This document shows, one piece after another, positions 6,455 through 37,813 of a stretch of 37,813 bases of DNA (its first letter is position 1; each line of letters starts with the position of its first letter). Under the pieces are notes generated by a model. The model was not told the DNA's origin, made no database searches, and saw nothing but the letters and a program-made list of their open reading frames with translations. Origin of the DNA: a virus; the IMG/VR virus record IMGVR_UViG_3300042507_002672; one strand, written 5' to 3'. A program made the translations under genes and the position numbers.

Positions 6455-7833
6455 AGTACTCAGATTTTCTGGCCGGCAAGGCAATTGTTGACCCCGACAC
6501 TGGAATAAAAAACCCCGTAGGCTTGTCTCCTCATTTGCGCGGGTTTCAGCGCGATATTACGAAGTGGGCACTACGTCGCGGCAGGGCTGCAATCTTTGCC
6601 GGCACGGGTCTTGGTAAGAGCTTCATGGAGTTGGAGTGGTGCAAGGCGGTCGCCGCCCACACTGGCAAGCCGTCACTGATCCTGACACCGCTCGCTGTCG
6701 CCGCTCAATTCGTGACAGAGGGCGAGAAGTGGGGAAACCCAGTAACGCACGCTCGCACTGGCGACGATATTCGTCCCGGCATTAACGTCACGAATTACGA
6801 AAAGCTTGAACACTTTGATATATCTCAATTCGGTGCCATCGTTCTGGATGAAAGCTCAATCCTTAAATCCTACGATGGCAAAACCCGTTCCCTTCTAATC
6901 AACACATGCAAGCAAGTTCCGTTCCGGCTGGCTGCGAGTGCAACCCCGGCGCCGAATGATTTTATGGAGCTTGGCAACCATGCCGAGTTCCTCGGTGTCA
7001 TGTCTTACACAGACATGCTCGCCACGTTCTTTATGCACGATTCGAGCGAGACGCAGACATGGCGCCTGCGTGGTCATGCCGAGCAACCGTTCTGGCGCTG
7101 GATGTGCTCATGGGCCGTAACCCTTCGTAAGCCTTCCGACCTTGGATATGAAAACGGAGGATACGACCTCCCGCCCCTAAACCAGATCGAACACCGCGTC
7201 GATGTTGCCTACGCCCCATCCCAGGATAGCGGGATGCTATTCCCGATGGAGGCACAGACCCTTTCAGAACGCCTCGGGGCGCGACGTGGGAGCATCAAGG
7301 AGCGCGTTGCTAAAGCCGCTGCTGTTACCCCATCCGACCGCCCGTTCGTGTGGTGGTGCAACCTCAATGCGGAAGCGGAGGCATTGTGCGCGGCTATTCC
7401 AGATGCCGTCGAAGTTCGTGGATCTGATAGCGAGCGCGAGAAGGAACGCAAACTAGCGGAGTTCGCAGCTGGAAAAATCCGCGTACTTGTGACGAAGCCT
7501 TCTATCTGCGGGTGGGGCCTAAACTGGCAGCATTGCGCCGACACTGGATTTGTCGGCCTCTCCGATAGCTTTGAGCAAGTCTATCAGGCCATCCGTCGTT
7601 TCTGGCGCTTTGGGCAAACCAATCAAGTCACGGCGCACTTCATTGCCGCCGAAACCGAGGGCGCGGTAGTCGCCAATATCCGCCGCAAAGAACAACAGGC
7701 CGATCACATGGTCAGTTCGATGATTGACCATATGCGGGATTTGAACAGCGCGGCCATCGCGGGGACGACGAGAGACAAGGCTTCATATTTTCCGACAACC
7801 AAAATGGGGATGCCACAATGGATCGCAGCGTAG
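6451..7833 (+). CDS. SNF2/DEAD-like superfamily 2 helicase
   Basis: Walker A AGTGLGKS, DExx-type VLDESS, SATPAPN (motif III), and C-terminal helicase-domain motifs (QAIRRFWRFGQ). Confidence 0.85.
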   Translation: MKYSDFLAGKAIVDPDTGIKNPVGLSPHLRGFQRDITKWALRRGRAAIFAGTGLGKSFMELEWCKAVAAHTGKPSLILTPLAVAAQFVTEGEKWGNPVTHARTGDDIRPGINVTNYEKLEHFDISQFGAIVLDESSILKSYDGKTRSLLINTCKQVPFRLAASATPAPNDFMELGNHAEFLGVMSYTDMLATFFMHDSSETQTWRLRGHAEQPFWRWMCSWAVTLRKPSDLGYENGGYDLPPLNQIEHRVDVAYAPSQDSGMLFPMEAQTLSERLGARRGSIKERVAKAAAVTPSDRPFVWWCNLNAEAEALCAAIPDAVEVRGSDSEREKERKLAEFAAGKIRVLVTKPSICGWGLNWQHCADTGFVGLSDSFEQVYQAIRRFWRFGQTNQVTAHFIAAETEGAVVANIRRKEQQADHMVSSMIDHMRDLNSAAIAGTTRDKASYFPTTKMGMPQWIAA

Positions 7834-8795
7834 AGACAATCGACCAAGTTATAACATCTGACTACGCCATTTACCTTGGCGACAGTTGCGAGCTTTTGCA
7901 GGGTATCCCGTCCGACAGCATCGGGTTCGGGATTCACTCTCCGCCGTTTGAGGGGCTGTATAAATTCAGCAATTCAGAACGCGACGTTTCAAACTCCGAA
8001 GGGCCGCAATTCTGGCAGCACTACGGGTTCATCATCTCTGAATTGCTCCGCGTGACAAAGCCGGGTCGCCTTCATTCGGTCCATTGCATGAACCTCCCCA
8101 CGTCGAAGATTAGGGACGGGTTCATTGGGATGCGTGACTTCCGCGGCGAAGTCGTGAGGGCTTACGAGGAAGCCGGCTGGCACATGCACTCGGAAGTGTG
8201 CATCTGGAAGGATCCCGTAGTCGCTCAGCAGCGCACAAAATCAATCCGGCTTTTGCACAAGCAAGTCGTAAAGGATTCGACGCTGTCAGGGCAGGGCCTT
8301 GCCGATTACATCGTGACGTTCCGCAAGCCAGGCGAGAACGCAGACCGTGTCTCGGGATGCTTCGACCAGTACATCGGGCCGGAAGATCAAGAACCCTCGA
8401 GGGCAAAGTACACATCCGAGATGGATGGCCGGAATTGGTACTCCATCGAAGTATGGCAGCGTTACGCATCTCCGGTCTGGATGGATATTCGCCAGGGCCG
8501 CGTTCTGCCGTTCCGGGGCGGTCGAGACGAAGATGATGAAGTCCACATCTCACCGCTGCAGCTCGATGTTATCGAGCGTTGCATCGACCTTTGGAGCAAC
8601 CCCGGCGATACCGTTATTACCCCGTTTATGGGTGTTGGTTCTGAGGTCTATTGCGCCGTTCAGATGGGCCGCAAGGGGCTTGGGATCGAACTGAAGCCAA
8701 GCTACTTCCGGCAAGCCGTCGAGAACGTAGCCAATGCCAGCGCGAGTAAAAACGATATGCCGTTGTTCGCGGTGATTAATGGGGGCGCGGCATGA
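7818..8795 (+). CDS. Beta-class exocyclic-amino DNA methyltransferase (N4-C or N6-A)
   Basis: Catalytic motif IV HSPPF lies near the N-terminus. The AdoMet motif I VITPFMGVGSE lies near the C-terminus. This IV-then-I order defines the beta class. Confidence 0.85.
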   Translation: MDRSVETIDQVITSDYAIYLGDSCELLQGIPSDSIGFGIHSPPFEGLYKFSNSERDVSNSEGPQFWQHYGFIISELLRVTKPGRLHSVHCMNLPTSKIRDGFIGMRDFRGEVVRAYEEAGWHMHSEVCIWKDPVVAQQRTKSIRLLHKQVVKDSTLSGQGLADYIVTFRKPGENADRVSGCFDQYIGPEDQEPSRAKYTSEMDGRNWYSIEVWQRYASPVWMDIRQGRVLPFRGGRDEDDEVHISPLQLDVIERCIDLWSNPGDTVITPFMGVGSEVYCAVQMGRKGLGIELKPSYFRQAVENVANASASKNDMPLFAVINGGAA

Positions 8796-8983
8796 CACCC
8801 GCACTATGCAAGCGCGCCGAGCGTGCCGTTACTTACGCTAATGGGTCCGCCGCTCGTCACAAGGCATCATTGCGTAAACGCCGAGAGGCTCAACGTCTTG
8901 TCGCCCTGTGTCTCGTCCAAGAGATCAGGTCAAAAGGCGGATACGTTCCGAGGAAGATCGAAACCGTACTGAGGGGGAACTAA
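8792..8983 (+). CDS. Hypothetical protein (63 aa)
   Basis: ORF track, with an ATGA overlap upstream. Confidence 0.5.
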   Translation: MTPALCKRAERAVTYANGSAARHKASLRKRREAQRLVALCLVQEIRSKGGYVPRKIETVLRGN

Positions 8984-9264
8984 TGCCAAACATCAGCAGA
9001 GGCCGCGCCGCGCTTACATGGTACGCGGATCGTGAAAAGAGGGCCGAACTAAAGGACGCAGAGAAAGCCGCTAAGTCGGCCCAAAATAAGGGCCTACAGC
9101 GCAAGTCCATGAAGTACCCAGGCTCATACACTGAGCATGAAAGAGAAGTCCTGCGGGCTTATTATTCGACGTTGGGGGCCGATCTACTGGCCGAGCGCCT
9201 TGGACGTACCCCGGCAAGTGTCGGGACCGAGGCCAATAGCATGGGCCTGAGGTTTGGCAAATGA
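8983..9264 (+). CDS. Hypothetical protein, possible HTH (93 aa)
   Basis: Start at MPNISRGR (taatg overlap). The C-terminal EREVLRAYYSTLGADLLAERLGRTPASV looks HTH-like. Confidence 0.55.
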   Translation: MPNISRGRAALTWYADREKRAELKDAEKAAKSAQNKGLQRKSMKYPGSYTEHEREVLRAYYSTLGADLLAERLGRTPASVGTEANSMGLRFGK

Positions 9265-9605: not shown

Positions 9606-10571
9606 ATGGCACGACCTGACACATGGATGCCGATGTACTGGCGAGACTTCTGGGCGGATACCGGCCACCTGTCACCCGTTGAAGGATGGGCCTACATCAA
9701 CCTGATTGGTGCTTACTGGACCATTGGAGGCCCGCTAGAGAACGATGACGCTCGACTTGCTAGGCAGGCCAAGGTCAGCCCGAAGGAATGGAAGGCGGCG
9801 CGTCCTGCCGTTATCGCGTTCTTTTCCGTGGATGACAAACTGATCCATCAGAAGCGGATTGACGCCGAGCTTGCCGTAGCCGTAGCCAGACACGCAGCTA
9901 AGGTCAAAGCAGGGACAAACGGAGCGCAAAAGAGATGGCAAAACGATAGCAGAGCTATAGCAGACCCATCTCTCAGCCATAAGCAAACCGATGCACAACT
10001 ACAACCACACTCATCTAACGATGAGACAGAAGCTAAAGCTTCTGTGGCGCAAGCGCCCAAATCCACGAAAGGAACTCGTCTTGCAAACGATTGGAAACCT
10101 AGTGAAGCAGATCGAACCTATGGCCGTAAACTCGGATACGCAGATACGGAGTTCGACGCGGAGTGCGGAGAGTTTAGAGCCTATTTCACAGGGCCAAACG
10201 CCACCAAGCCGGTCAAAAAATGTTGGGCTAGTGCCCTTGAACGATGGCTTCGCGAAAACGCCAGCCGCCGTTTTGCGAAGCGCAATCGCCCAGGACAGTC
10301 CGGCGGAAACAAACGCGGCCCTGGAAGCATACTTGCCGCGCTCGGTTCGGTCTTGGATCGACAGGACGGAAACTCGCGAGACGTGGGAGAAGTTGCCGAA
10401 AATGCGCCAGTATTTACCGGAGCCGACGCGCCCGGAACCTCTGCCGCAGGACGAGCATCAGAAGGCTTTGGCGGCGGTGAAGGCAACGTTATCAACGGTG
10501 AATGGAGCCGAGTGCAGGAAGCTCCTAGCGGAGATGAAATACCTCACGCGGCAGCGGGCGGAATCTACTGA
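9606..10571 (+). CDS. DUF1376/YdaU-like phage replication protein (3' end uncertain)
   Basis: The N-terminal WMPMYWRDFWADTGHLSPVEGWAYINLIGAYW is the DUF1376 signature. The C-terminal third overlaps another plausible frame (see findings). Confidence 0.75.
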   Translation: MARPDTWMPMYWRDFWADTGHLSPVEGWAYINLIGAYWTIGGPLENDDARLARQAKVSPKEWKAARPAVIAFFSVDDKLIHQKRIDAELAVAVARHAAKVKAGTNGAQKRWQNDSRAIADPSLSHKQTDAQLQPHSSNDETEAKASVAQAPKSTKGTRLANDWKPSEADRTYGRKLGYADTEFDAECGEFRAYFTGPNATKPVKKCWASALERWLRENASRRFAKRNRPGQSGGNKRGPGSILAALGSVLDRQDGNSRDVGEVAENAPVFTGADAPGTSAAGRASEGFGGGEGNVINGEWSRVQEAPSGDEIPHAAAGGIY

Positions 10572-10764
10572 GGACATTGCCGCGCAGATCGAGATTTACG
10601 CGCGGAAGATGGAATCATACCCAGCCGATATTGTGCGCTACGTGATTAAAACGCAGATTGACAACAGCCCGTGGTGGCCGGCATGGAACGAACTCAAGGA
10701 CAGGCTTGATTTGTTTCTGAGCGCCCGGAGCCGGAAGCTTATTGCGCTGACGACGCAGCCATGA
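10402..10764 (+). CDS. Hypothetical protein (start uncertain; frame open from 9991)
   Basis: The C-terminal part (ECRKLLAEMKYLTRQRAESTEDIAAQIEIYARKMESYPADIVRYVIKTQIDNSPWWPAWNELKDRL) looks genuinely coding. Its stop overlaps the next ATG (ATGA). Confidence 0.5.
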   Translation: MRQYLPEPTRPEPLPQDEHQKALAAVKATLSTVNGAECRKLLAEMKYLTRQRAESTEDIAAQIEIYARKMESYPADIVRYVIKTQIDNSPWWPAWNELKDRLDLFLSARSRKLIALTTQP

Positions 10765-11345
10765 TTTACACCGGATCAGGCGACCTACCCCGTCATCTTT
10801 ACGTCTACGTTGACCGCTCGTTTATTCGCCGCGACGGTACGGGATTTGAACCCGCTGTGTGGTTTGGCCTTACCGCAAAGTTTGGCGAGATGTGGGGCGC
10901 AAATTTGATGCTGGAATGTGGGGCGATCTACCGCAACGTTCCGTTGCACGCGCTGGCCTTTAGACCCAACCCGGACCCAGATTGGAGCGAACAAAGCGCC
11001 CAAGCTTGGGACTGCTACGGGGCTCAGTTCTCGGTGATCGAATACCGATATCTGACCAACGTACAGGCGGAAATCCGCAAGCCTGCAAAGCTGATGGGTT
11101 CGTACCTGTTCACGGCCATTCCGTTGTTTGACGGCTATACGCGCCACCCCGGCCAGTCGAAAGAGTTTGTGTTTCTTGAGCTTGAGAACGGGCGTTTGTC
11201 CTGTAAGTCCACGGACATGCTGATCTTCCACGACAAATCATTCTGCACGCCGTCGTGGCCGACCGATCTACGCCGGCAAGTGGACACCTACCATTGCGAA
11301 ATGTCGGCTGTAGCGGACATTGTTGGGAAAAGGATCGAAGGATGA
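10761..11345 (+). CDS. Hypothetical protein (194 aa)
   Basis: ORF track, with ATGA overlaps at both ends. Confidence 0.65.
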   Translation: MIYTGSGDLPRHLYVYVDRSFIRRDGTGFEPAVWFGLTAKFGEMWGANLMLECGAIYRNVPLHALAFRPNPDPDWSEQSAQAWDCYGAQFSVIEYRYLTNVQAEIRKPAKLMGSYLFTAIPLFDGYTRHPGQSKEFVFLELENGRLSCKSTDMLIFHDKSFCTPSWPTDLRRQVDTYHCEMSAVADIVGKRIEG

Positions 11346-11647
11346 CCAAGACAATCCCCGAAATAGACGATGAGATGGTTGAGCGTGCGTTTAGGTGGCT
11401 GAACGAAAACGCATGTTTTGGCGGTGAGCCGTTTTCGGAAAGCCGCCGTCAGGTTCGATGTGCATTGGAAGCCGCCCTTACAGAACCCGAGATAGAGGTG
11501 ACTGAGACCATGGCCGAAGCTGGTTGGAGCGCGTCTTGCGAGGGATACAACAGCGCCATCAAAAGGAATGCCGCCGTCTACCGCGCCATGGTTAAGGCCG
11601 CGCCTGGGGGTATTCCTCACGCCATTAACTCTGTAACGATAATATGA
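11342..11647 (+). CDS. Hypothetical protein (101 aa)
   Basis: Start at MTKTIPEID (ATGA overlap) within track ORF 11255..11647. Confidence 0.6.
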   Translation: MTKTIPEIDDEMVERAFRWLNENACFGGEPFSESRRQVRCALEAALTEPEIEVTETMAEAGWSASCEGYNSAIKRNAAVYRAMVKAAPGGIPHAINSVTII

Positions 11648-12390
11648 AAATAGGCTTCATCGGCTTATCAAAAATTGCTGCCGGTTATGAGGATCCCAAA
11701 GAAACGCATTTAGGGGCGATCCTGCGCGCCAATCCAAAAGCCAACCTCGTATGCTTTGACCCTGATAAAAACGCCCAGGTCGCCGCAAAACAAAGATTTG
11801 GGACCATCCACATCGCGGATGAATTAGACGCCTTGAAATGCGATGTGGTGCTTATATCTTCCCCGACGCAAACCCATTATCAGCACGTTACAAAAGCCCT
11901 CACACAACGGCACAAGCCCGTAGTGGTTTGCGAAAAGCCCCTGGCTCCCACATACGAGCAGGGCCGCGAGCTTGTGGAAAGGGCAGATCAATCCGGTCAA
12001 ACCCTAATCGTCAATTTTCAGCGCCGATGGCTTCCGGGTGTTTTGCAATGGTGCGCAGCTGCCAACCAAGGCCAATTCGGTAGACGAAGGGCGAGCGTGT
12101 TTTACGTTGGTCCCGAAACACGGGAAAGGTTTATCGCCTCGGCAAGCCACGCCTTGGACATTGCCGGGGCGTGTGGCGTGACGGCAGAGAATATCGACGT
12201 TTACCCGTATTTTGATTTTTCTGTCGAGGTTAGGTGCGAGCAAAGCAGCCTAACACTCCGCAAAATCGGGGACCTTGTGCCCGTTTGGGAAAATATCTTT
12301 AACCACATCGCCAAAGGAGATTCATTGCCGTGCCGCGCCGCAGACCATCTCCCCGGAATGAAACTCGTGGACGAACTGTGTCCAGCTTGA
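11644..12390 (+). CDS. Gfo/Idh/MocA-like NAD(P)-dependent oxidoreductase
   Basis: N-terminal Rossmann start MKIGFIGLSKIA. SSPTQTHYQHVTKAL...KPVVVCEKPLA contains the family-typical EKP motif. Confidence 0.7.
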   Translation: MKIGFIGLSKIAAGYEDPKETHLGAILRANPKANLVCFDPDKNAQVAAKQRFGTIHIADELDALKCDVVLISSPTQTHYQHVTKALTQRHKPVVVCEKPLAPTYEQGRELVERADQSGQTLIVNFQRRWLPGVLQWCAAANQGQFGRRRASVFYVGPETRERFIASASHALDIAGACGVTAENIDVYPYFDFSVEVRCEQSSLTLRKIGDLVPVWENIFNHIAKGDSLPCRAADHLPGMKLVDELCPA

Positions 12391-12489
12391 CCAAGAAAAC
12401 CGCAAAGAATGACGCCACAGCCAAGCGCACAGGCATGACCTGGAGCTTCCGGCAGAAAAAATACGTCACCCTCAGGGAATGGTGGGACC

Positions 12490-13110
12490 TTGGCTAAGAA
12501 ACTCAAAACCGTAGCACTTCTCGCCCGCAAGCCTGGATTGGAAATTCTTGACGCGCTTTTGTCGGATCCCCGGATCGATTTGAAAGTGGTCTACACTTAC
12601 AACCACCTTCCAAAATCTGAGAGCCCGAAGGAAAACAATTCCATCGGCTACACCGTAACGCAGCGCCCGGAATGGCCGGTGTTCAAGGAAAAGTGCGAAG
12701 CTGCCAGCGTGTTGATTTGGTCCGAGGTTGGATCAAACGGCTTTAATCCAACAAACGACCGCCATGCGCCCTATGATTTGCTTCTGTGCTGCAATTGGCG
12801 CCAGGTTGTGCCTGAATGGATACTCAGCGCCGCGCGCCACGCCATCAACATTCACCGTGGCGACCTTCCAAAATACCCCGGCAAGCGCCCTGTCCTTCAG
12901 GCCGTAGAGGTGGGGGAAGCGAGAGTAGCCATCACCGCGCACAAAATGACCGGGGTTATCGACGGAGGCCCAGTGATTGCAAAGGTTTACGCGGACGTTG
13001 TTAAGGCTTCGACGTTTGCGGAATCTGAAACGCTGACGCGAGACGCGCTTGTACCGTACTACGCGCCGTTAACGAGATTTATTGTAGATATTGCTTCCCG
13101 TGAAACCTAA
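12490..13110 (+). CDS. Formyltransferase-fold protein (PurN/Fmt N-domain/sugar N-formyltransferase-like)
   Basis: AINIHRGDLPKYPGKRPV matches the N.H...LP...G core. It is followed by HKMTGVIDGGPVIAK (D.G.I). The size (206 aa) fits single-domain formyltransferases. The start is TTG. Confidence 0.7.
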   Translation: MAKKLKTVALLARKPGLEILDALLSDPRIDLKVVYTYNHLPKSESPKENNSIGYTVTQRPEWPVFKEKCEAASVLIWSEVGSNGFNPTNDRHAPYDLLLCCNWRQVVPEWILSAARHAINIHRGDLPKYPGKRPVLQAVEVGEARVAITAHKMTGVIDGGPVIAKVYADVVKASTFAESETLTRDALVPYYAPLTRFIVDIASRET

Positions 13111-13192
13111 CCAGTGGAGTGTGACTACATGAAAACTATACGCCGTGGCCGGCCAAAATCAGACCGCCCCAAAGTAACCCAGGGAGCCTTAA

Positions 13193-13486
13193 ATGCTTGT
13201 CCATCTCCGAACCATTAAGGCCCTCCAAACCCAGTCCATGAGCTACCGGACACCGCCCAAGCCCCACCACGACAACGCGGGCTATCAGCCGGCGCTCTGC
13301 CCGATCAACTGGACCCCCAAAACATGCCAGTGGATCGAGGGAACGCCGAGCAAGATGGAACTACGGCGCCACGGGTCAGAACGGTTTAAGTGCAACGCCG
13401 CGGTTCAACCACAATCGAGCTATTGCGAAGAACACCATTCGAAATGTTGGACCGTGTTGACACCCCCGGAAAAACAAGCACGGTAA
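13193..13486 (+). CDS. GcrA C-terminal-domain-like protein (97 aa)
   Basis: TCQWIEGTPS....RFKCNAAVQPQSSYCEEHHSKCW follows the GcrA C-terminal pattern C.WP.G.P....F.C.......YC..H. No GcrA-type N-terminal HTH is recognisable. GGGAG lies upstream of the ATG. Confidence 0.55.
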   Translation: MLVHLRTIKALQTQSMSYRTPPKPHHDNAGYQPALCPINWTPKTCQWIEGTPSKMELRRHGSERFKCNAAVQPQSSYCEEHHSKCWTVLTPPEKQAR

Positions 13487-13556
13487 ATCGAATGACCAAA
13501 GCCCAACTCCTGCGGACAGTCTCGCCGCTCCCGTTCCGAATTTATTACGCGCGCCT

Positions 13557-13832
13557 ATGGTTATAAATCGCTGGCTGACAAATTTAGAGTCCCGCGAAAG
13601 CCTTGAGGCCGAACGGGACAAAGCCCAGGCCCAGGTTGACGCAAGCCCTGCCAGTTTGACCGCACGGGCGGAATTAAACGCCGCTCTTAGCAGATTGGTA
13701 AGCCACGACAGGACCATGGCCCTGATTGAGCAAGAGAACGGACGCATCGGCATTGGCGAGCCCATGGGCACAGAGTACCGCACGGCAGAACAAATCAAGG
13801 CTGACGGGCATATTGGGATTTACCGGACGTGA
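13557..13832 (+). CDS. Hypothetical protein (91 aa)
   Basis: ORF track only. Confidence 0.5.
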   Translation: MVINRWLTNLESRESLEAERDKAQAQVDASPASLTARAELNAALSRLVSHDRTMALIEQENGRIGIGEPMGTEYRTAEQIKADGHIGIYRT

Positions 13833-13841
13833 TCGCACAGA

Positions 13842-14102
13842 ATGGCAGCGCGTAAGACCAAGGGCACAAAAGACATACCGTGGCCCGAAGCTACGAGAGA
13901 GCGCATCCGCGCCAGTATGCTTGAAAAAGAGCTTATGAAACATGTACTTGGCCAGCGCGATATGACGCCAACGCAATTTGGCGCGGCTAAGGCGCTACTG
14001 AACAAGGTTCTCCCCGACCTGACAGAGAACGAAACGCGCATCTCGGGTGAAATAATTATCGAGCGCAGGTATTTTGGCTCAAAGAATCCAAATCCCAAAT
14101 AA
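13842..14102 (+). CDS. Candidate small terminase subunit (86 aa)
   Basis: Called from its position immediately upstream of, and overlapping, the large terminase gene. It is small and basic with an HTH-like middle. No diagnostic motif. Confidence 0.4.
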   Translation: MAARKTKGTKDIPWPEATRERIRASMLEKELMKHVLGQRDMTPTQFGAAKALLNKVLPDLTENETRISGEIIIERRYFGSKNPNPK

Positions 14103-15444
14103 GTGGGAACCGCGTGAGTACCAATTACCGCTGTGGTCTGCCCTTGAGGACGGCTGCAAGCGCGCCCTGTACACGTGGCATCGCCGCGCTGGCAAGGACG
14201 ACATAGGGCTTCACTTCACCGCGACCGAGGTGATCGAGAAGCCCGGCGTCTACTGGTACATGCTTCCCGAAGCCGCGCAGGCCCGTAAGGCGATCTGGAA
14301 GGCTATCGACCCCCACACTGGCCTGCGACGTATTGATTGGGCTTTCCCTCCCGAGATTCGGGCAAGTACCAACGACACGGAAATGTTCATCAACTTCAAG
14401 AGCGGCGCAACGTGGCAAGTCGTGGGCTCTGATAACTACAACAGCCTGGTGGGATCGCCTCCCCGCGGCGTGGTGTTCTCTGAGTGGGCCTTAGCCAATC
14501 CTGCGGCATGGGCCTACATCCGGCCTATCCTGAGAGAAAACGGCGGATGGGCGCTGTTCAACTTCACGCCCCGAGGTCGCAACCATGCCGTTACCATGTA
14601 CGAGGCGCACAAGGACGACCCCGACTGGTTCATTCAGAAGCTTACAGCCAAGCAAACCGGGGCCATGACCGACGAAGAATTGGCTAAGGAACTGCTGGAT
14701 TATCAATCTGACTTTGGCGAGGAAGATGGGGAATCGAAGTTCCGCCAGGAATACCTATGCGACTTCGACGCTCCTTTGGTCGGGGCTTACTACGCCAAGA
14801 TTATCAGCAAGCTCGAAGATGCCGGCCAAATCCGCGATGTGCCTTACGACAAGCACAAGCCCGTTTACACCGCCTGGGACATCGGCCGCACGGATGACGC
14901 CGCAGTGTGGTTCTACCAGATCATCAACCGCGAAATTCACGTCATTGACTACTTTGCCAAGCCGGGCGGGGACGTGCCCGAGTTCGCCGCCATGCTGCAA
15001 GAGAAGAAATACATCTACGGCAAGCACACGCTCCCCCATGACGGCCGGCATAAAACATTCGCGGCGCCGCGCTCTGTATTCGAGCAGCTCGGGGAGTTCG
15101 TGGGCTTGGCGTCGGTCGGCATCTGCCCCGACCATCATCGGATTGATGGTATCGCCGCGGTTCGTGCTATACTGCCGAGGTGCTGGTTTGACGCCAAGCG
15201 ATGCAAGCAAGGGCTAGAAGCCTTGCGGCAATACCAGCGGAAATGGGACGACGAACGTAAGGTGTTCTCTCCTGATCCGCTGCATAATTGGGCGTCTCAT
15301 GCGTCCGATGCCTTCCGCTATATGGCTGTGGCGTTCAAGGAAGAAAACCCGACTGCGTTTAAATCCTCCACGTTCCGCCAGCCCACGCTTAACGAAGCAT
15401 GGGAGAGGCAGGAGCGTTTCGGGCATGACGAGGCGCGGATATGA
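14074..15444 (+). CDS. terL: Terminase large subunit
   Basis: N-terminal ATPase region (WHRRAGKDD Walker-A-like). C-terminal RNaseH-like nuclease motifs (YTAWDIGRTDDAAVWFYQ, PHDG, ASDAFRY). The start is non-ATG (TTG) and approximate. Confidence 0.9.
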   Translation: MAQRIQIPNKWEPREYQLPLWSALEDGCKRALYTWHRRAGKDDIGLHFTATEVIEKPGVYWYMLPEAAQARKAIWKAIDPHTGLRRIDWAFPPEIRASTNDTEMFINFKSGATWQVVGSDNYNSLVGSPPRGVVFSEWALANPAAWAYIRPILRENGGWALFNFTPRGRNHAVTMYEAHKDDPDWFIQKLTAKQTGAMTDEELAKELLDYQSDFGEEDGESKFRQEYLCDFDAPLVGAYYAKIISKLEDAGQIRDVPYDKHKPVYTAWDIGRTDDAAVWFYQIINREIHVIDYFAKPGGDVPEFAAMLQEKKYIYGKHTLPHDGRHKTFAAPRSVFEQLGEFVGLASVGICPDHHRIDGIAAVRAILPRCWFDAKRCKQGLEALRQYQRKWDDERKVFSPDPLHNWASHASDAFRYMAVAFKEENPTAFKSSTFRQPTLNEAWERQERFGHDEARI

Positions 15445-20396: not shown

Positions 20397-21437
20397 TTGG
20401 ATTTATCAAATCATCCTCTCGGCAATTTGGGCGACGGCTTCCGCATTAAGGAAACGTTTGACCCGATCACGACGAGCTCCGTTGCGTTCTCAACGGTCCC
20501 CGCATTTATACAAATCGGGCCTGCCGCGCCGCAGTTCAGACCTTTGCGGGATGCCATACCGTACACAAAGGGTCGGTTGGAGGCGTGGAAGCTTGTCGAG
20601 CATGTACGCTCGGCCAAGGCGAAAAACTGGCCTGGGATCAAGCCTAGTGAGTTTTTAGGCCAGTCCATTGCTATCTGTGGCGGCGGGCCGTCGCTGGCGT
20701 CCCTTGAGCAATTAAAAGAACTGCGCGCCCTTCAAAAGAAGGGAACAAAGGTTCTTGCGATCAACCGCACGCATGATTTTTTGCTGACCAAGGGCGTTGT
20801 CCCGTGGGCTGGGATTTTGCTTGATCCCGTTCCCGCGGTCGCAAGCTACATCACACCGCGCCGCGGTATCCGGTATTACGTCGGCTCTCAGTGTCATCCG
20901 AGCACGTTTGACAACTTCGACAAGCCCGATGTGCAGAAATACATCTGGCACGCTGCCTCCGTTCCTGAGATGGACGCCGAACTTACTGCGCGCGAGATGG
21001 TTTTACGCGTTCCGGCGAACGGTTCTACGTGCGGGCTTCGCTCGATCCTCAAGTCTTATATCGAGGGATTCCGCGAGATTCATCTGTTCGGCTTTGATAG
21101 CTGCATGGAGCAGAACGCGGACGGGACGCTCAAGATCAACGACGGCAAGCCAAACCTTCACGCCTACCCCAAACCCGAGGCCATCCTTGACGTGAAGGAA
21201 ATGCTGGTCCCGATGGATGACGGGGACCGCACGTACTACGGCAACACGATGATGTTTTCGCAGGCTGACGAGTTCCAACAGTTTCTTTTAGCCCGCGATC
21301 AAGGCCTGCAAAACGGGATGCTGGAGCCCCATACGATAACTGTCCACGGGTCCGGTTTAATCCCTGATATCGCCCGCTTCTATGGGCTCCATTCCGACCA
21401 ACTGAAGGTGAAACATGGCAAGCGGCTACACGCGTGA
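20397..21437 (+). CDS. DUF115 (MptE/Maf-like) protein
   Basis: IAICGGGPSLASL...KVLAINRTHDFLLTKGVVPWAGILLDP...NGSTCGLRSILKSYIEGFREIHLFGFDSC matches the GxGPSL ... D ... G.D core of DUF115/motility-accessory-factor proteins. The start is TTG. Confidence 0.65.
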   Translation: MDLSNHPLGNLGDGFRIKETFDPITTSSVAFSTVPAFIQIGPAAPQFRPLRDAIPYTKGRLEAWKLVEHVRSAKAKNWPGIKPSEFLGQSIAICGGGPSLASLEQLKELRALQKKGTKVLAINRTHDFLLTKGVVPWAGILLDPVPAVASYITPRRGIRYYVGSQCHPSTFDNFDKPDVQKYIWHAASVPEMDAELTAREMVLRVPANGSTCGLRSILKSYIEGFREIHLFGFDSCMEQNADGTLKINDGKPNLHAYPKPEAILDVKEMLVPMDDGDRTYYGNTMMFSQADEFQQFLLARDQGLQNGMLEPHTITVHGSGLIPDIARFYGLHSDQLKVKHGKRLHA

Positions 21438-22730: not shown

Positions 22731-24286
22731 GGAAGGCATTAAGACCAACGCCCGCCACATCCGAGGCATCACTTCCAATCAATATCCCGGCTCCGGTTGG
22801 GGGCTTAAACACGCGCGACGGGCGGGCGGTTATGCCCATCACCGATGCTGAGTTGATGGACAACTGGTTCCCCGAGGCGACAGACGTTCGCGTTCGTCCG
22901 GGCTCTGACACCTATTGTTCCGGCATCGGCGCCCAGGTTGAAAGCATCATGTCCTATTCGGGCGGGGCAACGCTGAAGCTGCTTATCGCTGCGGGCGGGA
23001 CGATCCAGAACATATCGACCGTAGGCGTCACGGGGACGATTGCAGCCAGTTCAACCATTGCCAACGGGTTCAATAACGACCGCTGGCAGTATCGGAACTT
23101 TGGCACTCCTGGAGGCACATTCCTTGTCGCGGTGAACGGCGAAGACGCGCGCCAGATTTATAACGGCACGGTCATGTGGGCCGGATCGGCGTCTGCCGGC
23201 TCGGGTACGGCTGCGGTCTTCTCGAATATCGAGATTTTTCAGCGGCGCATCTACTACACCCAGACCAATTCGCTAGAGTTTCTCTACCACGACCAAGTAT
23301 CAGCCATAGGCGGGACAATTAGCGGATTTAACCTCGCGCCATTGTTAAGCCGTGGTGGATCTCTTACCGCTATCGGAACATGGACCCGCGACGGCGGTTC
23401 GGGGATGGATGACTTAATATCCTTCCTCTCATCCGAGGGGGAAATCATCGTCTATCAGGGGCTTGATCCGGCAGACGCCAATTCGTGGTCAATGGTTGGG
23501 GTCTATAAGATTGCTCGCCCTGTTGGACCCCGAGCGATGCAAAAGCTCGGTGGTGAGCTTCTAATTGACACGGTGCAGGGCGTTTATTCGCTCTCTGCGG
23601 TTATGTCAGGCCTCAAACAGCAGGCCCCATTCTCCGACAAGATCAACACGGCTCTAAGCGCGGCGTGGGGTGTCTACAAGAACAACTTTGGCTGGGAGAT
23701 GAAATACGACCCAGACCGTGAATGGCTGATACTGAATGTCCCTGTCGCGTCGGGGAACTTACAGCAGCAATACGTCATGAACACTCACACTCAAGCCTGG
23801 ACGCGCTTCCTGGGCTGGGATGCGAACTGTTTCGAGTTCCACAACGGGAATCTGTATTTTGGGACAAATGGGTCTGTAGTCCAAGCCGCGACAAGTTCAC
23901 AGTCCGATGATGGCGAGGATATCCTTGTTGACGTTCGACAGGCCGCGTCAACCTTCGGCGCTCCCGGCAGGCTTAAGCACTTCAAGATTTACCGCCCTCT
24001 GATTAACTCAGACGGGGCGCTTGGCCTCGCGTTCGCTATGGACGTGGATTTCAACGATCAAACGCCAACCAACATCCCGACAGTGGTGGCTGTCCCCTTT
24101 GCTGAGTGGGACGTGGCTACGTGGGACGATTTCTTCTGGGGTGGCGATCCGGTCCCCGTGGGCCAGTGGCAATCAGCCGGCGCATTGGGGACTTACGGGT
24201 CTGTACGTATCAAGGGCGCTGCCAATGAAACGGCCATTCGCTGGTACGGAACGGATGTAGTGTTAGAACCCGGAGGTATGGTATAA
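22727..24286 (+). CDS. Putative tail tubular B/nozzle-like structural protein
   Basis: ATG at 22727 (ATGA overlap). The call rests on size (about 520 aa) and position in a podovirus-like tail module. Confidence 0.5.
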   Translation: MRKALRPTPATSEASLPINIPAPVGGLNTRDGRAVMPITDAELMDNWFPEATDVRVRPGSDTYCSGIGAQVESIMSYSGGATLKLLIAAGGTIQNISTVGVTGTIAASSTIANGFNNDRWQYRNFGTPGGTFLVAVNGEDARQIYNGTVMWAGSASAGSGTAAVFSNIEIFQRRIYYTQTNSLEFLYHDQVSAIGGTISGFNLAPLLSRGGSLTAIGTWTRDGGSGMDDLISFLSSEGEIIVYQGLDPADANSWSMVGVYKIARPVGPRAMQKLGGELLIDTVQGVYSLSAVMSGLKQQAPFSDKINTALSAAWGVYKNNFGWEMKYDPDREWLILNVPVASGNLQQQYVMNTHTQAWTRFLGWDANCFEFHNGNLYFGTNGSVVQAATSSQSDDGEDILVDVRQAASTFGAPGRLKHFKIYRPLINSDGALGLAFAMDVDFNDQTPTNIPTVVAVPFAEWDVATWDDFFWGGDPVPVGQWQSAGALGTYGSVRIKGAANETAIRWYGTDVVLEPGGMV

Positions 24287-24723
24287 TGCTTTCCGTCGCC
24301 ACTCCCGACGACCTTGAAGAGGTTTTTAACCTTCTCCTGGTCATGCACGCCGAAAACGGCGTCGGTCGATTGGATGAACCCAAGGCCCGCGGGGCTATCT
24401 CCGAAATCATCAATTCTGGCGGCTGCTTAATTTCAAAGCAGAACGGCAAGATTGTTGGAAGTGTTGGTCTCACCATGACGAGCTGGTGGTATTCGCGGGA
24501 TCGGTTTCTTGTGGACGAGTGGTTCTTTGTCCACCCCGACAACCGGAGCGAAGGCCATGCGACCCAGCTTATTGGATGGATGAAAACTGCGGCTCAGACG
24601 TGCGGGACTCCGGTTGTTCTCAGCGTGGGGACTACGGTGGACGCTCTGTCCAAGCTTAAATACTTCCGCAAGCATCTGACCCCGTTCGGCGGCGCCTTCA
24701 TTTACCAGCCCAAGGCGGCTTAA
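24286..24723 (+). CDS. GNAT-family N-acetyltransferase-like protein (145 aa)
   Basis: KIVGSVGL...DEWFFVHPDNRSEGHATQLIGWMKTAA resembles GNAT motif A (V.P..R..G....L). It has a taatg overlap with the upstream tail gene. Confidence 0.6.
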   Translation: MLSVATPDDLEEVFNLLLVMHAENGVGRLDEPKARGAISEIINSGGCLISKQNGKIVGSVGLTMTSWWYSRDRFLVDEWFFVHPDNRSEGHATQLIGWMKTAAQTCGTPVVLSVGTTVDALSKLKYFRKHLTPFGGAFIYQPKAA

Positions 24724-32202: not shown

Positions 32203-32442
32203 ATGACCGAAGATGTTCGCATTGGGGAGGTCGTTACTAAGACCGCCGTTCTTGAATCTCGTTTAGACGGCCATGAGGACATTTGCGCCAAGAGGTATGG
32301 GGAGATTGCCGAGGCTTTTGGCGATCTAAAATCAAAACTTGTGGGGATCGAAAGCCGGATGACCGGCGCGCTTATCACCCTCGTTTTAATCCTCACAACG
32401 GCCCTAGCGACGGTCCTGTGGGCTAAAATGAATGGTGGGTGA
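32203..32442 (+). CDS. Small protein with a C-terminal transmembrane helix (79 aa)
   Basis: A coiled-coil-like N-terminus is followed by GALITLVLILTTALATVLWA. Confidence 0.55.
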   Translation: MTEDVRIGEVVTKTAVLESRLDGHEDICAKRYGEIAEAFGDLKSKLVGIESRMTGALITLVLILTTALATVLWAKMNGG

Positions 32443-33482
32443 TGGGCCTGCCCCCAACCCCTCGTGATGTTCTCCAAGAGGCTCTGGACCTTAAGGCGAA
32501 GTATGGGGGATGGGCGGAAGCCTCTAGGGTGTCTCGGGTTCCTATCAATACTCTGAAGTCTCGAGGGGATAGGGCCAAAGCGGCGGGGCTTACGCCCCTA
32601 GCAGCCCCCATCAGAGATGATTCCAACATCACCGCGCTGGTTGATAGCCTGCGGTCGGAGTTGGACAAAGCCAGGGACGAACTGGCCAAAGCCCAAAGGC
32701 CAAAGTTCACCATCCGTCAAGAGGTGCGCGGTGTAGCCTCTAAGATACGGGTTCTTGCCATAGGCGATACCCACGACGATAGGCACCTCTCCAAAGACAG
32801 ATTTGAGTGGCTCTGCAAATACGCGCGCGAGATTACCCCCGATGTGGTTTTGCAGATCGGGGATATGGCGACGATGGACAGCCTCAATTTCCACATCCCG
32901 AACGAAAGCCTGGACGGGAAACTAAAGCCTTCGTTTGAGGCGGATATGGGTTCGCTCAATCTCGCCCTCCAAGCCTTTGGCTGCGACGGAATCGAGAAAC
33001 ACGTAACTCTCGGAAACCACGAACGGCGCGTCTGGAATTATGAGCAATCCAATCCCGAGATGGCCGGCAAGCTGGTTTGCACGCTCGACAGCGTCCTAAA
33101 AAATAACGGGTGGACCTATAGCCCTTACGGAATAATTCAATATTACGGCGGCGTCGGATTCGTGCATTGCGCCTTAAATACACTGGGCAAGGCGTATGGG
33201 GGGAAGAACTGCCTCCCGACCATTGCGAACGACAGCGTTTCGGATTTGGTCGTAGGCCACTCTCACCGCGCCCGCGTGCATCAAGCTCCGAAGATTGGGC
33301 AGCGATACCCCACGACCATCATAGACCTCGGCTGCGCTTTGCCTGATGGCCATATCGAGGGTTATGCCGCACACGCCCTGAACGGCTGGACCTGGGGAGC
33401 TTATGAGCTGCTCATCCAGCACAATCATATCCAGAGCGCGAAATTCGTCAGCATGGCGGAACTTGGGGAGCGGTACTCATGA
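32442..33482 (+). CDS. Calcineurin-like metallophosphoesterase with an N-terminal extension of about 100 aa
   Basis: The ordered motifs GDTHD, GDMA, GNHE and GHSH are present. ATG at 32442 overlaps the upstream TGA. Confidence 0.8.
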   Translation: MGLPPTPRDVLQEALDLKAKYGGWAEASRVSRVPINTLKSRGDRAKAAGLTPLAAPIRDDSNITALVDSLRSELDKARDELAKAQRPKFTIRQEVRGVASKIRVLAIGDTHDDRHLSKDRFEWLCKYAREITPDVVLQIGDMATMDSLNFHIPNESLDGKLKPSFEADMGSLNLALQAFGCDGIEKHVTLGNHERRVWNYEQSNPEMAGKLVCTLDSVLKNNGWTYSPYGIIQYYGGVGFVHCALNTLGKAYGGKNCLPTIANDSVSDLVVGHSHRARVHQAPKIGQRYPTTIIDLGCALPDGHIEGYAAHALNGWTWGAYELLIQHNHIQSAKFVSMAELGERYS

Positions 33483-37504: not shown

Positions 37505-37523
37505 TTGTCGTGTCCCTTCGTGG

Positions 37524-37813
37524 TTAGCCGTCGCCGTAGCCGGAGCCGTAGCCGGAGCCGGAGCCGTAGCCGGAGCCGTAGCCGTCGCCGTAGCCGTCGC
37601 CGTCGCCGTAGCCGGAGCCGGAGCCGTAGCCGGAGCCGTAGCCGTCGCCGTCGCCGTAGCCGGAGCCGGAGCCGTAGCCGTAGCCGTAGCCGGAGCCGTA
37701 GCCGGAGCCGTAGCCGTCGCCGTAGCCGTCGCCGTCGCCGTAGCCGGAGCCGGAGCCGTAGCCGGAGCCGTAGCCGTCGCCGTAGCCGTCGCCGTCGCCG
37801 TAGCCGGAGCCGG
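37524..37813 (-). CDS. C-terminal part of the (Gly-X)n repeat protein (enters from the window end; stop TAA at 37526..37524)
   Basis: The minus-strand frame reads GGC-TAC/GGC-TCC/GGC-GAC throughout and ends ...G-Y-G-D-G-stop. It is the same frame as 1..153 once the 86-nt terminal overlap is merged. Confidence 0.5.
   Translation of the reverse strand, partial: GSGYGDGDGYGDGYGSGYGSGSGYGDGDGYGDGYGSGYGSGYGYGYGSGSGYGDGDGYGSGYGSGSGYGDGDGYGDGYGSGYGSGSGYGSGYGDG
37530..37813. repeat. Tandem hexanucleotide array (47 perfect units plus 2 nt) of gtcgcc, gtagcc and ggagcc
   Basis: Direct reading gives unit order DYSYSSYSYDY DDYSSYSYD DYSSYYYSYSY DY DDYSSYSYDY DDYS(gg). The 60-nt super-unit DDYSSYSYDY recurs. 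Confidence 0.95.

Follow-up and report, generated by a model that had tools for sequence, protein, structure and literature searches.

A formyltransferase and oxidoreductase pair in an uncultured podovirus-like phage as candidate tailoring enzymes for host-derived nonulosonic acids

We analyzed a 37,813-nt stretch of viral DNA, IMG/VR record IMGVR_UViG_3300042507_002672 (the whole of which is referred to as the window), which represents a podovirus-like phage related to SU10. Two adjacent plus-strand genes encode an oxidoreductase of the Gfo/Idh/MocA family (Gfo; 11644..12390) and a single-domain N-formyltransferase (FT; 12490..13110). The best overall explanation, which we favor with modest confidence, is that Gfo and FT tailor a host nonulosonic acid (NulO) for transfer to protein by a phage-encoded DUF115 protein (20397..21437), here called mini-Maf. 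NulOs are the pseudaminic and legionaminic acid class of bacterial sialic acid-like sugars and are major determinants of bacterial surface recognition, with roles as phage receptors, in immune evasion and in flagellar assembly. The evidence consists of the folds and intact catalytic residues of the enzymes, purifying selection, the association of both enzyme clades with NulO gene clusters, the homology of DUF115 to Maf, the co-occurrence of FT and DUF115 in phages and the lack of genes for NulO synthesis in the phage. All components are members of known superfamilies. In the libraries and literature searched, we found no description of the FT clade, of the trimmed Gfo, of the phage mini-Maf or of the three together. 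The arrangement of Gfo, FT and mini-Maf was found in no cultured phage and nowhere in that literature.

The formyltransferase clade and its gene neighborhoods

FT is a 206-aa protein with a TTG start that contains NIHRGDLPKYPG and VIDGGPVI and matches Pfam Formyl_trans_N (PF00551) with an E-value of 1.5e-12 over residues 94-181. An earlier note on this DNA had delimited the open reading frames (ORFs) of Gfo and FT and listed their motifs, all of which are present, and had described FT as a single-domain enzyme lacking the tRNA-binding C-domain of Fmt. This is in agreement with the AlphaFold model (pLDDT 91.2), in which one domain ends in a long C-terminal helix and no Fmt-type C-domain follows, as well as with the lack of a PF02911 match. 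Foldseek returned Fmt, ArnA and PurN with a probability of 1.00, placing FT in the formyltransferase superfamily with its Rossmann-like fold, Asn-x-His motif and downstream Asp. The catalytic triad N120/H122/D158 is invariant in 56 family members, and FT presumably uses N10-formyl-tetrahydrofolate. Compared with L012, a diverged relative of the phage, the ratio of nonsynonymous to synonymous substitutions (dN/dS) was 0.05 for FT and 0.12 for Gfo. Both values indicate strong purifying selection and fall within the range of the neighboring genes (0.02-0.17). Gfo and FT are functional genes.

Structure comparison, from which the earlier note had expected a placing of both enzymes, confirmed their superfamilies but did not separate subfamilies, for which profiles and genome context were needed. 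In case of FT, PDB matches to Fmt, ArnA, WbkC and PurN all had template modeling (TM) scores of 0.57-0.75 at 15-21% identity. The best of them were the catalytic domain of Fmt (TM 0.70-0.75) and the formyltransferase domain of ArnA (TM 0.61-0.72), both of which share the Asn-His-Asp triad with FT and, in case of ArnA, align over the full length. ArnA also provides a precedent for a sugar formyltransferase coupled to a sugar oxidoreductase dependent on nicotinamide adenine dinucleotide (NAD). However, identity to either protein is 15-21%, the window FT has no OB-fold C-domain, the ArnA oxidoreductase is a fused SDR decarboxylase rather than a separate Gfo-family protein, and the phage carries no 4-amino-4-deoxy-L-arabinose (Ara4N) genes.

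An exhaustive hidden Markov model search of 1.84 billion representative proteins yielded 64 full-length FT relatives at E<=1e-30, below which the scores dropped across a gap to ca. 80-100 bits, mostly for Fmt-sized proteins. A word-indexed search of 5.8 billion clusters gave 11 relatives, or 59 when a profile was used, and members found by single-sequence search were 38-49% identical to FT over more than 94% of its length. We defined the clade by a full-length profile score of at least ca. 120 bits, a single domain of ca. 185-250 aa and invariant R13, G16, W103, NxHRG and D158. FT matches over its full length, falls within the size range and carries all of these residues; it also seeded the clade profile, so that its own profile match is no independent test, whereas the single-sequence matches and the score gap of the exhaustive search support the clade independently. 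FT scored below every NCBIfam equivalog cutoff. Searched against solved structures, the clade profile matched the Fmt catalytic domain best (2.7e-19), followed by the ArnA formyltransferase (9e-16, aligned from residue 3), PurU (1e-14), PurN (9e-14, C-terminal half only), WbkC (7e-11) and PseJ (1e-9).

Three candidate identities were rejected on these grounds. As a PurN, FT reached 33.5 bits for TIGR00639 against a cutoff of 150.1, and PurN chains aligned only from profile position 57 onward, most of them from ca. 75. As an Fmt, it reached 38.8 bits for TIGR00460 against a cutoff of 201.5, had no PF02911 match and is 206 aa long. A PseJ-type assignment by sequence was not supported either, with a profile match of 1.1e-9 confined to the C-terminal half. 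The N-terminal loop of FT reads ARxPG, with R13 and G16 invariant in the family; the phosphate loop of PurN is GxGSN. Judged by its sequence, FT belongs to a small, distinct clade that is neither PurN nor Fmt nor PseJ, and the JGI label 'methionyl-tRNA formyltransferase' and the PHROG label 'PurN' are wrong for this gene. A scan of IMG/VR with one peptide pattern, which may under-count, returned the lineage of the window only, and in BFVD two giant-virus formyltransferases but no phage protein resembled FT.

Genome context was decisive, and the FT clade is associated with NulO clusters. NeuB is encoded next to FT or one gene off in six of eight cellular loci (L004, L018, L013, L014, L015 and L016). 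Four of these, L013 to L016, come from GTDB genomes, namely a Bdellovibrionaceae metagenome-assembled genome (MAG), a Bdellovibrionota MAG, a Nitrososphaerota archaeon and a Chlamydiae MAG; because they were picked by FT similarity alone, this sample is unbiased as to NeuB. Six of the eight loci share one HAD hydrolase, six share one NUDIX-like protein, and three have CTP_transf_3. In L004, NeuB-FT is followed by a 387-aa ORF (no Pfam match; WbpG-like by position only), HisH and HisF, with CTP_transf_3, a CmcI-type methyltransferase and a dehydratase also nearby. In L018, a group made up of CTP_transf_3, NeuB and the NUDIX-like gene faces a second group of FT, HAD and a methyltransferase. None of the loci examined placed the clade in a nucleotide-metabolism or purine-gene context. 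A folate-metabolism reading of the FT/NUDIX/HAD set was also rejected, as the clusters are defined by NeuB and a CMP-transferase (CMP, cytidine monophosphate). The NeuB, HAD and NUDIX-like neighbors are a cellular trait. The phage FT is without them in the window and co-occurs with DUF115 instead.

The cellular cassette itself, composed of NUDIX-like, FT, NeuB and HAD genes with or without CTP_transf_3, was seen in Bdellovibrionota and Nitrososphaerota as well as in the metagenomic contigs L004 and L018 (L013 9333-12199; L014 2767-5756; L016 20-1990; L018 7281-12627; L004 999-4240), and the Chlamydiae locus L015 showed NeuB and FT but no further cassette genes. FT-HAD fusions (P0085, P0097) and an FT-GNAT fusion (P0091) exist as well. 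NUDIX and HAD could substitute for the PseG/LegG-type hydrolase that acts on sugars activated with nucleoside diphosphate (NDP), and no description of a NUDIX-like/FT/NeuB/HAD route was found in the literature searched. Beyond the phage, a newly defined and previously unannotated formyltransferase clade and its cellular cassette are of interest in their own right. In Bdellovibrionota, Chlamydiae, Magnetococcales and Nitrososphaerota, the cassette may make formamido-NulOs in a way that has not been described so far.

The characterized enzyme closest to the role that we propose for FT is PseJ from Anoxybacillus (PDB 6CI2/6CI4). It is a single-domain protein of the same fold and similar size (chains of 192-217 aa) and formylates the amine of a NulO precursor in place of acetylation by PseH (PMC11040635), as FT would do in our model. 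FT differs from it by a distant sequence relationship, by the invariant R13 and G16 of its own clade and by partners of its own (NUDIX-like, HAD and NeuB).

The oxidoreductase and the Maf-related putative glycosyltransferase

Gfo is a 248-aa protein with an ATG start that begins with MKIGFIGLSKIA and contains VVCEKPLA. The Pfam match to GFO_IDH_MocA (PF01408; 5e-18) covers residues 2-125 only. Family membership is supported by a Foldseek probability of 1.00 for the AlphaFold model (pLDDT 91.5) and by the retained invariant residues D39, E97-K98-P99 and H169, with a glycine-rich loop that reads GLSKIA. The protein is ca. 80 residues shorter than usual family members, with two internal deletions that trim the C-terminal beta-sheet domain. 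It scored 54 for NCBIfam IolG against a cutoff of 355. In Foldseek searches, WlbA, GnnA, KijD10, inositol dehydrogenases and Gal80 all had TM scores of ca. 0.7, singling out no subfamily.

Only four close relatives of Gfo were found, all on phage-like contigs. Among cellular proteins, P0016 from Thalassospira is the nearest to Gfo (E 6e-9, 30% identity over 59% of the protein), and the two have the N-terminal signature 'AAGY...THLGA' in common. The P0016 locus is ordered CTP_transf_3, Gfo and DegT aminotransferase, with NeuB, a hydrolysing 2-epimerase and a second CTP_transf_3 further on, and then three dehydratase/epimerase genes. This is a cluster of the legionaminic acid type with P0016 in the PtmF position, directly after CTP_transf_3. 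The order LegF-PtmF, with PtmF as an 'oxidoreductase' of 326 aa, is known from Plesiomonas, Vibrio and Campylobacter (PMC4481668). Through this genomic association we infer that the phage Gfo may be PtmF-like, although it is ca. 75-80 residues shorter, with the two C-domain deletions described above, and although PtmA, PtmE and PgmL are absent from the phage.

The DUF115/MptE-like protein (346 aa, 20397..21437, plus strand; PF01973, 2.2e-10) was placed by profile comparison, while a single-sequence PDB search with it returned nothing. A profile built from 43 phage sequences matched the central domain of M. magneticum Maf (5MU5), the putative flagellin pseudaminic acid transferase, with an E-value of 2.7e-11 over 192 residues (245-436). 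The match to the archaeal MptE kinase (8SD5) was weaker (6e-4), and an MptE-type pterin kinase was rejected since the similarity is confined to 52 residues around the GxGPS loop. This GxGPS motif is common to Maf and the phage proteins. In Maf, residues E324 and D415 are critical (bioRxiv 10.1101/2020.06.03.131540). E324 aligns with D143 (LLDP) and D415 with D234 (GFDS) of the phage protein, and both aspartates are invariant in the 43 phage sequences. DUF115 is, by these alignments, homologous to the Maf catalytic domain, and we presume it to be a CMP-NulO:protein glycosyltransferase that would use the tailored sugar. The phage proteins, of 282-410 aa compared with the 666 aa of Maf, have neither of the domains that adjoin the Maf catalytic domain on its N- and C-terminal sides, and we therefore refer to them as mini-Mafs. 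They also differ from Maf in location, as they are found in head and packaging modules and not in flagellar glycosylation islands.

At least 291 relatives of the phage DUF115 were confirmed in IMG/VR, while the clade is absent from PHROGs, NCBIfam and ca. 50,000 deposited phage genomes. Of 80 viral loci (L024-L103), ca. 40 had identifiable landmarks, and in all of these the gene was either flanked by the capsid and adaptor genes or situated immediately upstream of TerL. Probes for NeuB, CMP-transferase, DegT and dehydratase found none of these within 10 kb in any of the 80 loci, and 11 loci also carry a Nucleotid_trans-type glycosyltransferase (GT).

FT and DUF115 occur together in all five phage lineages with contigs long enough to judge. 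The window lineage and L012, its TARA relative, have Gfo, FT and DUF115. L002 carries the C-terminus of Gfo together with FT, VapE, TerL, DUF115 and PhyH; L020 carries FT, PhyH, GNAT, an FkbM methyltransferase and a TerL-adjacent DUF115 in a genome with a P22-type portal; and L104 resembles L020 with a second methyltransferase added. The PhyH, GNAT, FkbM-type and S-adenosylmethionine-dependent methyltransferases or GT that other FT phages add are typical glycan-tailoring enzymes. L012 had appeared to be a counter-example, as no DUF115 lies between its capsid and adaptor genes, but tblastn located a diverged copy ca. 0.7 kb downstream of FT. Identity to the window proteins is 92% for the L012 Gfo and 85% for the L012 FT, but only 36% for the L012 DUF115. 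Given these identities and the changed position of DUF115, the association of FT with DUF115 has survived both rearrangement and allele replacement.

Between the replication genes and the terminase, these phages have what behaves like a variable slot for glycan tailoring. In the window (11644-13110) it is filled by Gfo-FT, in L027 (205-831) by a Nucleotid_trans glycosyltransferase of the type seen in L003, and in L012 (7619-10762) by Gfo, FT, a 162-aa ORF and DUF115. Directly in front of Gfo in the window lies a small ORF of ca. 100 aa (11345..11647, plus strand), whose stop codon overlaps the Gfo start (ATGA). It has no Pfam or PHROG match. Small ORFs with 38-41% identity to it adjoin FT or GT in phage contigs that are otherwise unrelated (L003 4835-5224; L020 10651-10974; L048 1146-1409), and the module may include it as a further conserved part.

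Proposed sugar tailoring and competing explanations

Domain scans and tblastn found no NeuB, CMP-transferase, aminotransferase, dehydratase, nucleotidyltransferase, HAD or NUDIX gene in the window. With NulO synthesis genes absent from the phage, any such pathway must therefore branch from a host intermediate; on this conclusion, as on the lack of an aminotransferase, dehydratase and nucleotidyltransferase, we agree with the earlier note. In our model, FT would intercept an intermediate with a free amino group. The likeliest substrate would be the NDP-4-amino-4,6-dideoxy-hexosamine from PseC or LegC, with an NDP-hexosamine or a de-N-acetylated CMP-NulO as alternatives. FT would formylate the amine in place of host acetylation, and tolerant host enzymes downstream (hydrolase, NeuB-type synthase and CMP-transferase) would complete the formamido-NulO. 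The PtmF-like Gfo may oxidize or reduce this sugar, or a precursor of it, with NAD as cofactor. Mini-Maf would then move the CMP-activated sugar to Ser/Thr residues of a head protein or another concurrently made virion protein. What the model says on the substrate of FT, on the reaction of Gfo, on the donor sugar and on its acceptor is inferred.

Several published observations are compatible with the individual steps. Pse5Ac7Fo is the product of PseJ, and PseF uses it no less readily than Pse5Ac7Ac (PMC11040635). Formylated CMP-NulOs occur in Ca. Kuenenia, where a formyltransferase gene lies between the leg genes and neuB (bioRxiv 10.64898/2026.04.20.719630). Maf enzymes are promiscuous for their donor, with flagellin as the known Maf acceptor. 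Further, 5-N-formyl-legionaminic acid is found in Halorubrum and on VP4 of its virus (PMC6137143). This virus, HRPV-1, shows that a formylated NulO can be carried by a viral structural protein, although its glycan is made and attached wholly by host enzymes. The closest precedents for phage enzymes that re-tailor a host-made NulO, and likewise depend on the host pathway, are EpaA/EpaB and the NulO O-acetyltransferases of Acinetobacter prophages (PMC12053666; PMC6586298). They differ from the present system in that EpaA/EpaB belong to other families (CTP_transf_3 fused to an aldo-keto reductase, and SDR), and in that all of them are encoded by integrated prophages, act on capsular polysaccharide and come without a phage-encoded transferase. 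In mycobacteriophages, glycosyltransferase genes are taken as a sign of capsid glycosylation. They lie beside the capsid gene and encode ordinary GT-A/GT-B hexosyltransferases.

Taken on its own, it is fairly probable that the pair tailors a NulO and works with DUF115. In the earlier note, a sugar-derivatizing pair feeding the DUF115 and GNAT genes had been one of three options, and its DUF115 part is supported by the NulO-cluster relatives, the Maf homology and the co-occurrence with DUF115 in all five informative lineages, an association that the note had also raised. The link to GNAT (N-acetyltransferase of 145 aa, 24286..24723, plus strand; Acetyltransf_1, 1.4e-6; phrog_1249 acetyltransferase) is weak. 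It is possible that GNAT is a second N-acylating enzyme of the module, considering the FT-GNAT fusion P0091 and the GNATs beside FT in L020 and L104. Against this, the window GNAT is not homologous to the FT-adjacent GNATs elsewhere, and its position is kept in L027, which has neither FT nor Gfo in the 21 kb examined.

A number of observations weigh against the proposed tailoring. Each functional step rests on homology and gene neighborhood. FT is remote from PseJ, the one characterized NulO formyltransferase, and fold comparison does not tell sugar, tRNA and glycinamide ribonucleotide (GAR) formyltransferases apart. At two of the eight cellular loci (L017, L019), no NeuB lies within 10 kb of FT. 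Gfo is tied to PtmF-type proteins only modestly, through P0016, and its fold is equally like many sugar dehydrogenases. DUF115 lies 7.3 kb downstream of FT in the window and does not adjoin it. Further, 78 of the 80 viral DUF115 loci have no FT; FT is thus an accessory gene, and DUF115 may well draw its donor from elsewhere. The model also presumes a host that makes a NulO. Finally, the L012 FT (8638-9189) has an in-frame deletion of 23 codons in which the catalytic D158 is lost. In the same contig, Gfo is interrupted at 8270-8285 by a run of N followed by AT-rich sequence, a scaffold gap that gives the appearance of a 'frameshift'. Both are probably assembly artefacts, with gene decay as the alternative.

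That the acceptor is a virion protein is something we propose tentatively, because DUF115 lies in the head module, lacks the Maf flanking domains and is accompanied by no integrase. The same NulO tailoring could instead place its product on host flagellin, pilin, S-layer, capsule or lipopolysaccharide and thereby change receptors, block superinfection or alter motility. Such remodeling of the host surface is unlikely, but it is favored by the published precedents: the experimentally shown phage NulO modifications that we found all act on the host capsule, as in the conversion of Pse to 8ePse by EpaA/EpaB (PMC12053666) and in the phage O-acetyltransferases acting on NulOs (PMC6586298), and the known acceptor of Maf is flagellin. 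The moron-like, variable slot that Gfo-FT occupies, taken by a GT in L027, and the lambdoid-style Erf/YqaJ/SSB recombination genes would also fit. However, no integrase, recombinase or recognizable repressor domain was detected among the ORFs tested (every non-spurious ORF of at least 250 aa and most of at least 80 aa), and all related contigs of 36-38 kb are without host flanks. In every landmark-bearing viral locus mini-Maf sits in the head/packaging module, which fits late co-expression with virion proteins, and the domains on either side of the catalytic domain of the 666-aa Maf are missing from it. Still less likely is an ordinary NDP-amino-hexose as the target, formylated by FT in the manner of WlaRD, VioF, WbkC or ArnA after C3/C4 oxidation by Gfo and used by a non-DUF115 GT or by host enzymes. 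The structures closest to Gfo do include the nucleotide-sugar C3 dehydrogenases/ketoreductases WlbA, GnnA and KijD10, the FT profile aligns with the ArnA formyltransferase domain over its full length, and L003 pairs FT with a Nucleotid_trans-type GT. But the window has no aminotransferase to convert a keto sugar to the amine, DUF115 is its sole glycosyltransferase, relatives of the L003-type cluster also carry DUF115 (L048), and the FT clade goes with NeuB, HAD and CMP-transferase genes rather than with genes for dTDP- or GDP-sugars (thymidine or guanosine diphosphate).

The two other options of the earlier note found no support. It had considered a modification of DNA bases or of the nucleotide pool, by which phage DNA would escape restriction, since the pair closes the replication module and two DNA methyltransferases are encoded in the same genome; the adjacency of DUF115 and terminase in many phages could be added in its favor. 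We consider this highly improbable, given that searches of the window detected no gene for base modification (hydroxymethylase, deazaguanine, amino-acyl or other), that neither enzyme clade stands in a nucleotide-metabolism context among the loci examined and that the catalytic residues retained in DUF115 are those of a sialyltransferase-like enzyme acting on proteins. The least probable explanation of all is an auxiliary role in purine or one-carbon metabolism, with FT as a PurN-like GAR transformylase or formyl-tetrahydrofolate hydrolase that raises nucleotide supply. E. coli PurN is indeed the best single-sequence PDB match of FT (3e-8), and the matching PHROG is labelled 'cyanobacterial PurN'. 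Yet both of these matches are confined to residues 90-190, the catalytic core common to such enzymes, the NCBIfam score of 33.5 remains far from the cutoff of 150, and PurN chains, which start to align at position 57 or, mostly, ca. 75, are outdone in this respect by ArnA, which aligns from position 4. The N-terminal loop R13..G16 is unlike that of PurN, and no locus has purine genes nearby. A firm structure-based placing in PurN, which the note had listed among its refuting outcomes, was not obtained.

Tailoring of a host NulO for mini-Maf remains our preferred reading, and it can be extended to a broader, possible but doubtful scenario. In this scenario, the phages behind at least 291 uncultured tailed-phage contigs in IMG/VR would decorate their own head proteins with NulOs by a minimal Maf, and some lineages would rewrite the host NulO pathway through the variable slot, so that the virion carries a formamido-NulO unlike the sugar of the host. 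If true, viruses would exploit NulO chemistry themselves, with masking or stabilizing virions or rewriting the host surface as possible uses. The system would be the first phage-encoded protein-NulO glycosylation system and the first case of a virus customizing its glycan by midway hijack of a host nucleotide-sugar pathway. The 206-aa FT and the 280-350-aa mini-Mafs would also be compact candidates for chemoenzymatic synthesis and for protein engineering similar to sialylation.

Genome organization and further features

Domain assignments of the Pfam/PHROG type order the window into modules. A recombination module (SSB, Erf, YqaJ and VRR-NUC) and a replication module (helicase, N6/N4 methyltransferase, DnaA-HTH protein with its helix-turn-helix, and DUF1376 primosomal protein) are found along with a packaging and head module composed of terminase, portal, major head protein (phrog_9953) and DUF115. 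The later genes encode an SU10-type adaptor, GNAT, tail proteins, a metallophosphoesterase and a C5 methyltransferase. Domain matches confirmed DUF115, GNAT and the two DNA methyltransferases (N6/N4, 7818-8795; C5, 35430-36836 on the minus strand), which had been named earlier as context genes. The calcineurin-like metallophosphoesterase (347 aa, 32439-33482, plus strand; Pfam 6e-7) stands at the end of the tail module. Directly upstream of the block of small ORF, Gfo and FT lies a gene for a 194-aa protein (10761-11345, plus strand) that matches phrog_3704 'ferredoxin' (5e-12), has no Pfam match and is kept in all relatives. A promoter and terminator scan of 10500-14200 gave counts at chance level.

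Among GenBank phages there was no close relative, with matches of 70-75% in the terminase region alone, and tblastn of DUF115, FT and Gfo against GenBank returned nothing or generic superfamily matches. Ca. 17 near-identical metagenomic contigs of up to 37.9 kb were found, in which Gfo and FT are adjacent wherever both fall inside the contig.

The first 86 nt of the window are identical to its last 86 nt, and a minus-strand ORF stays in frame when these ends are joined, from which we conclude that the window is most likely a complete circular assembly of ca. 37.7 kb. Both ends consist of a hexanucleotide array (TAGCCG-type units, 48 copies; 1-153 and 37521-37813), and the assembly break coincides with it. 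On the minus strand, the array encodes an ORF of ca. 118 aa that starts with MEPKIYD and continues as (Gly-Tyr/Gly-Ser/Gly-Asp)n. Whether this Ser/Tyr-rich repeat protein might serve as an O-glycosylation acceptor is a matter of speculation.

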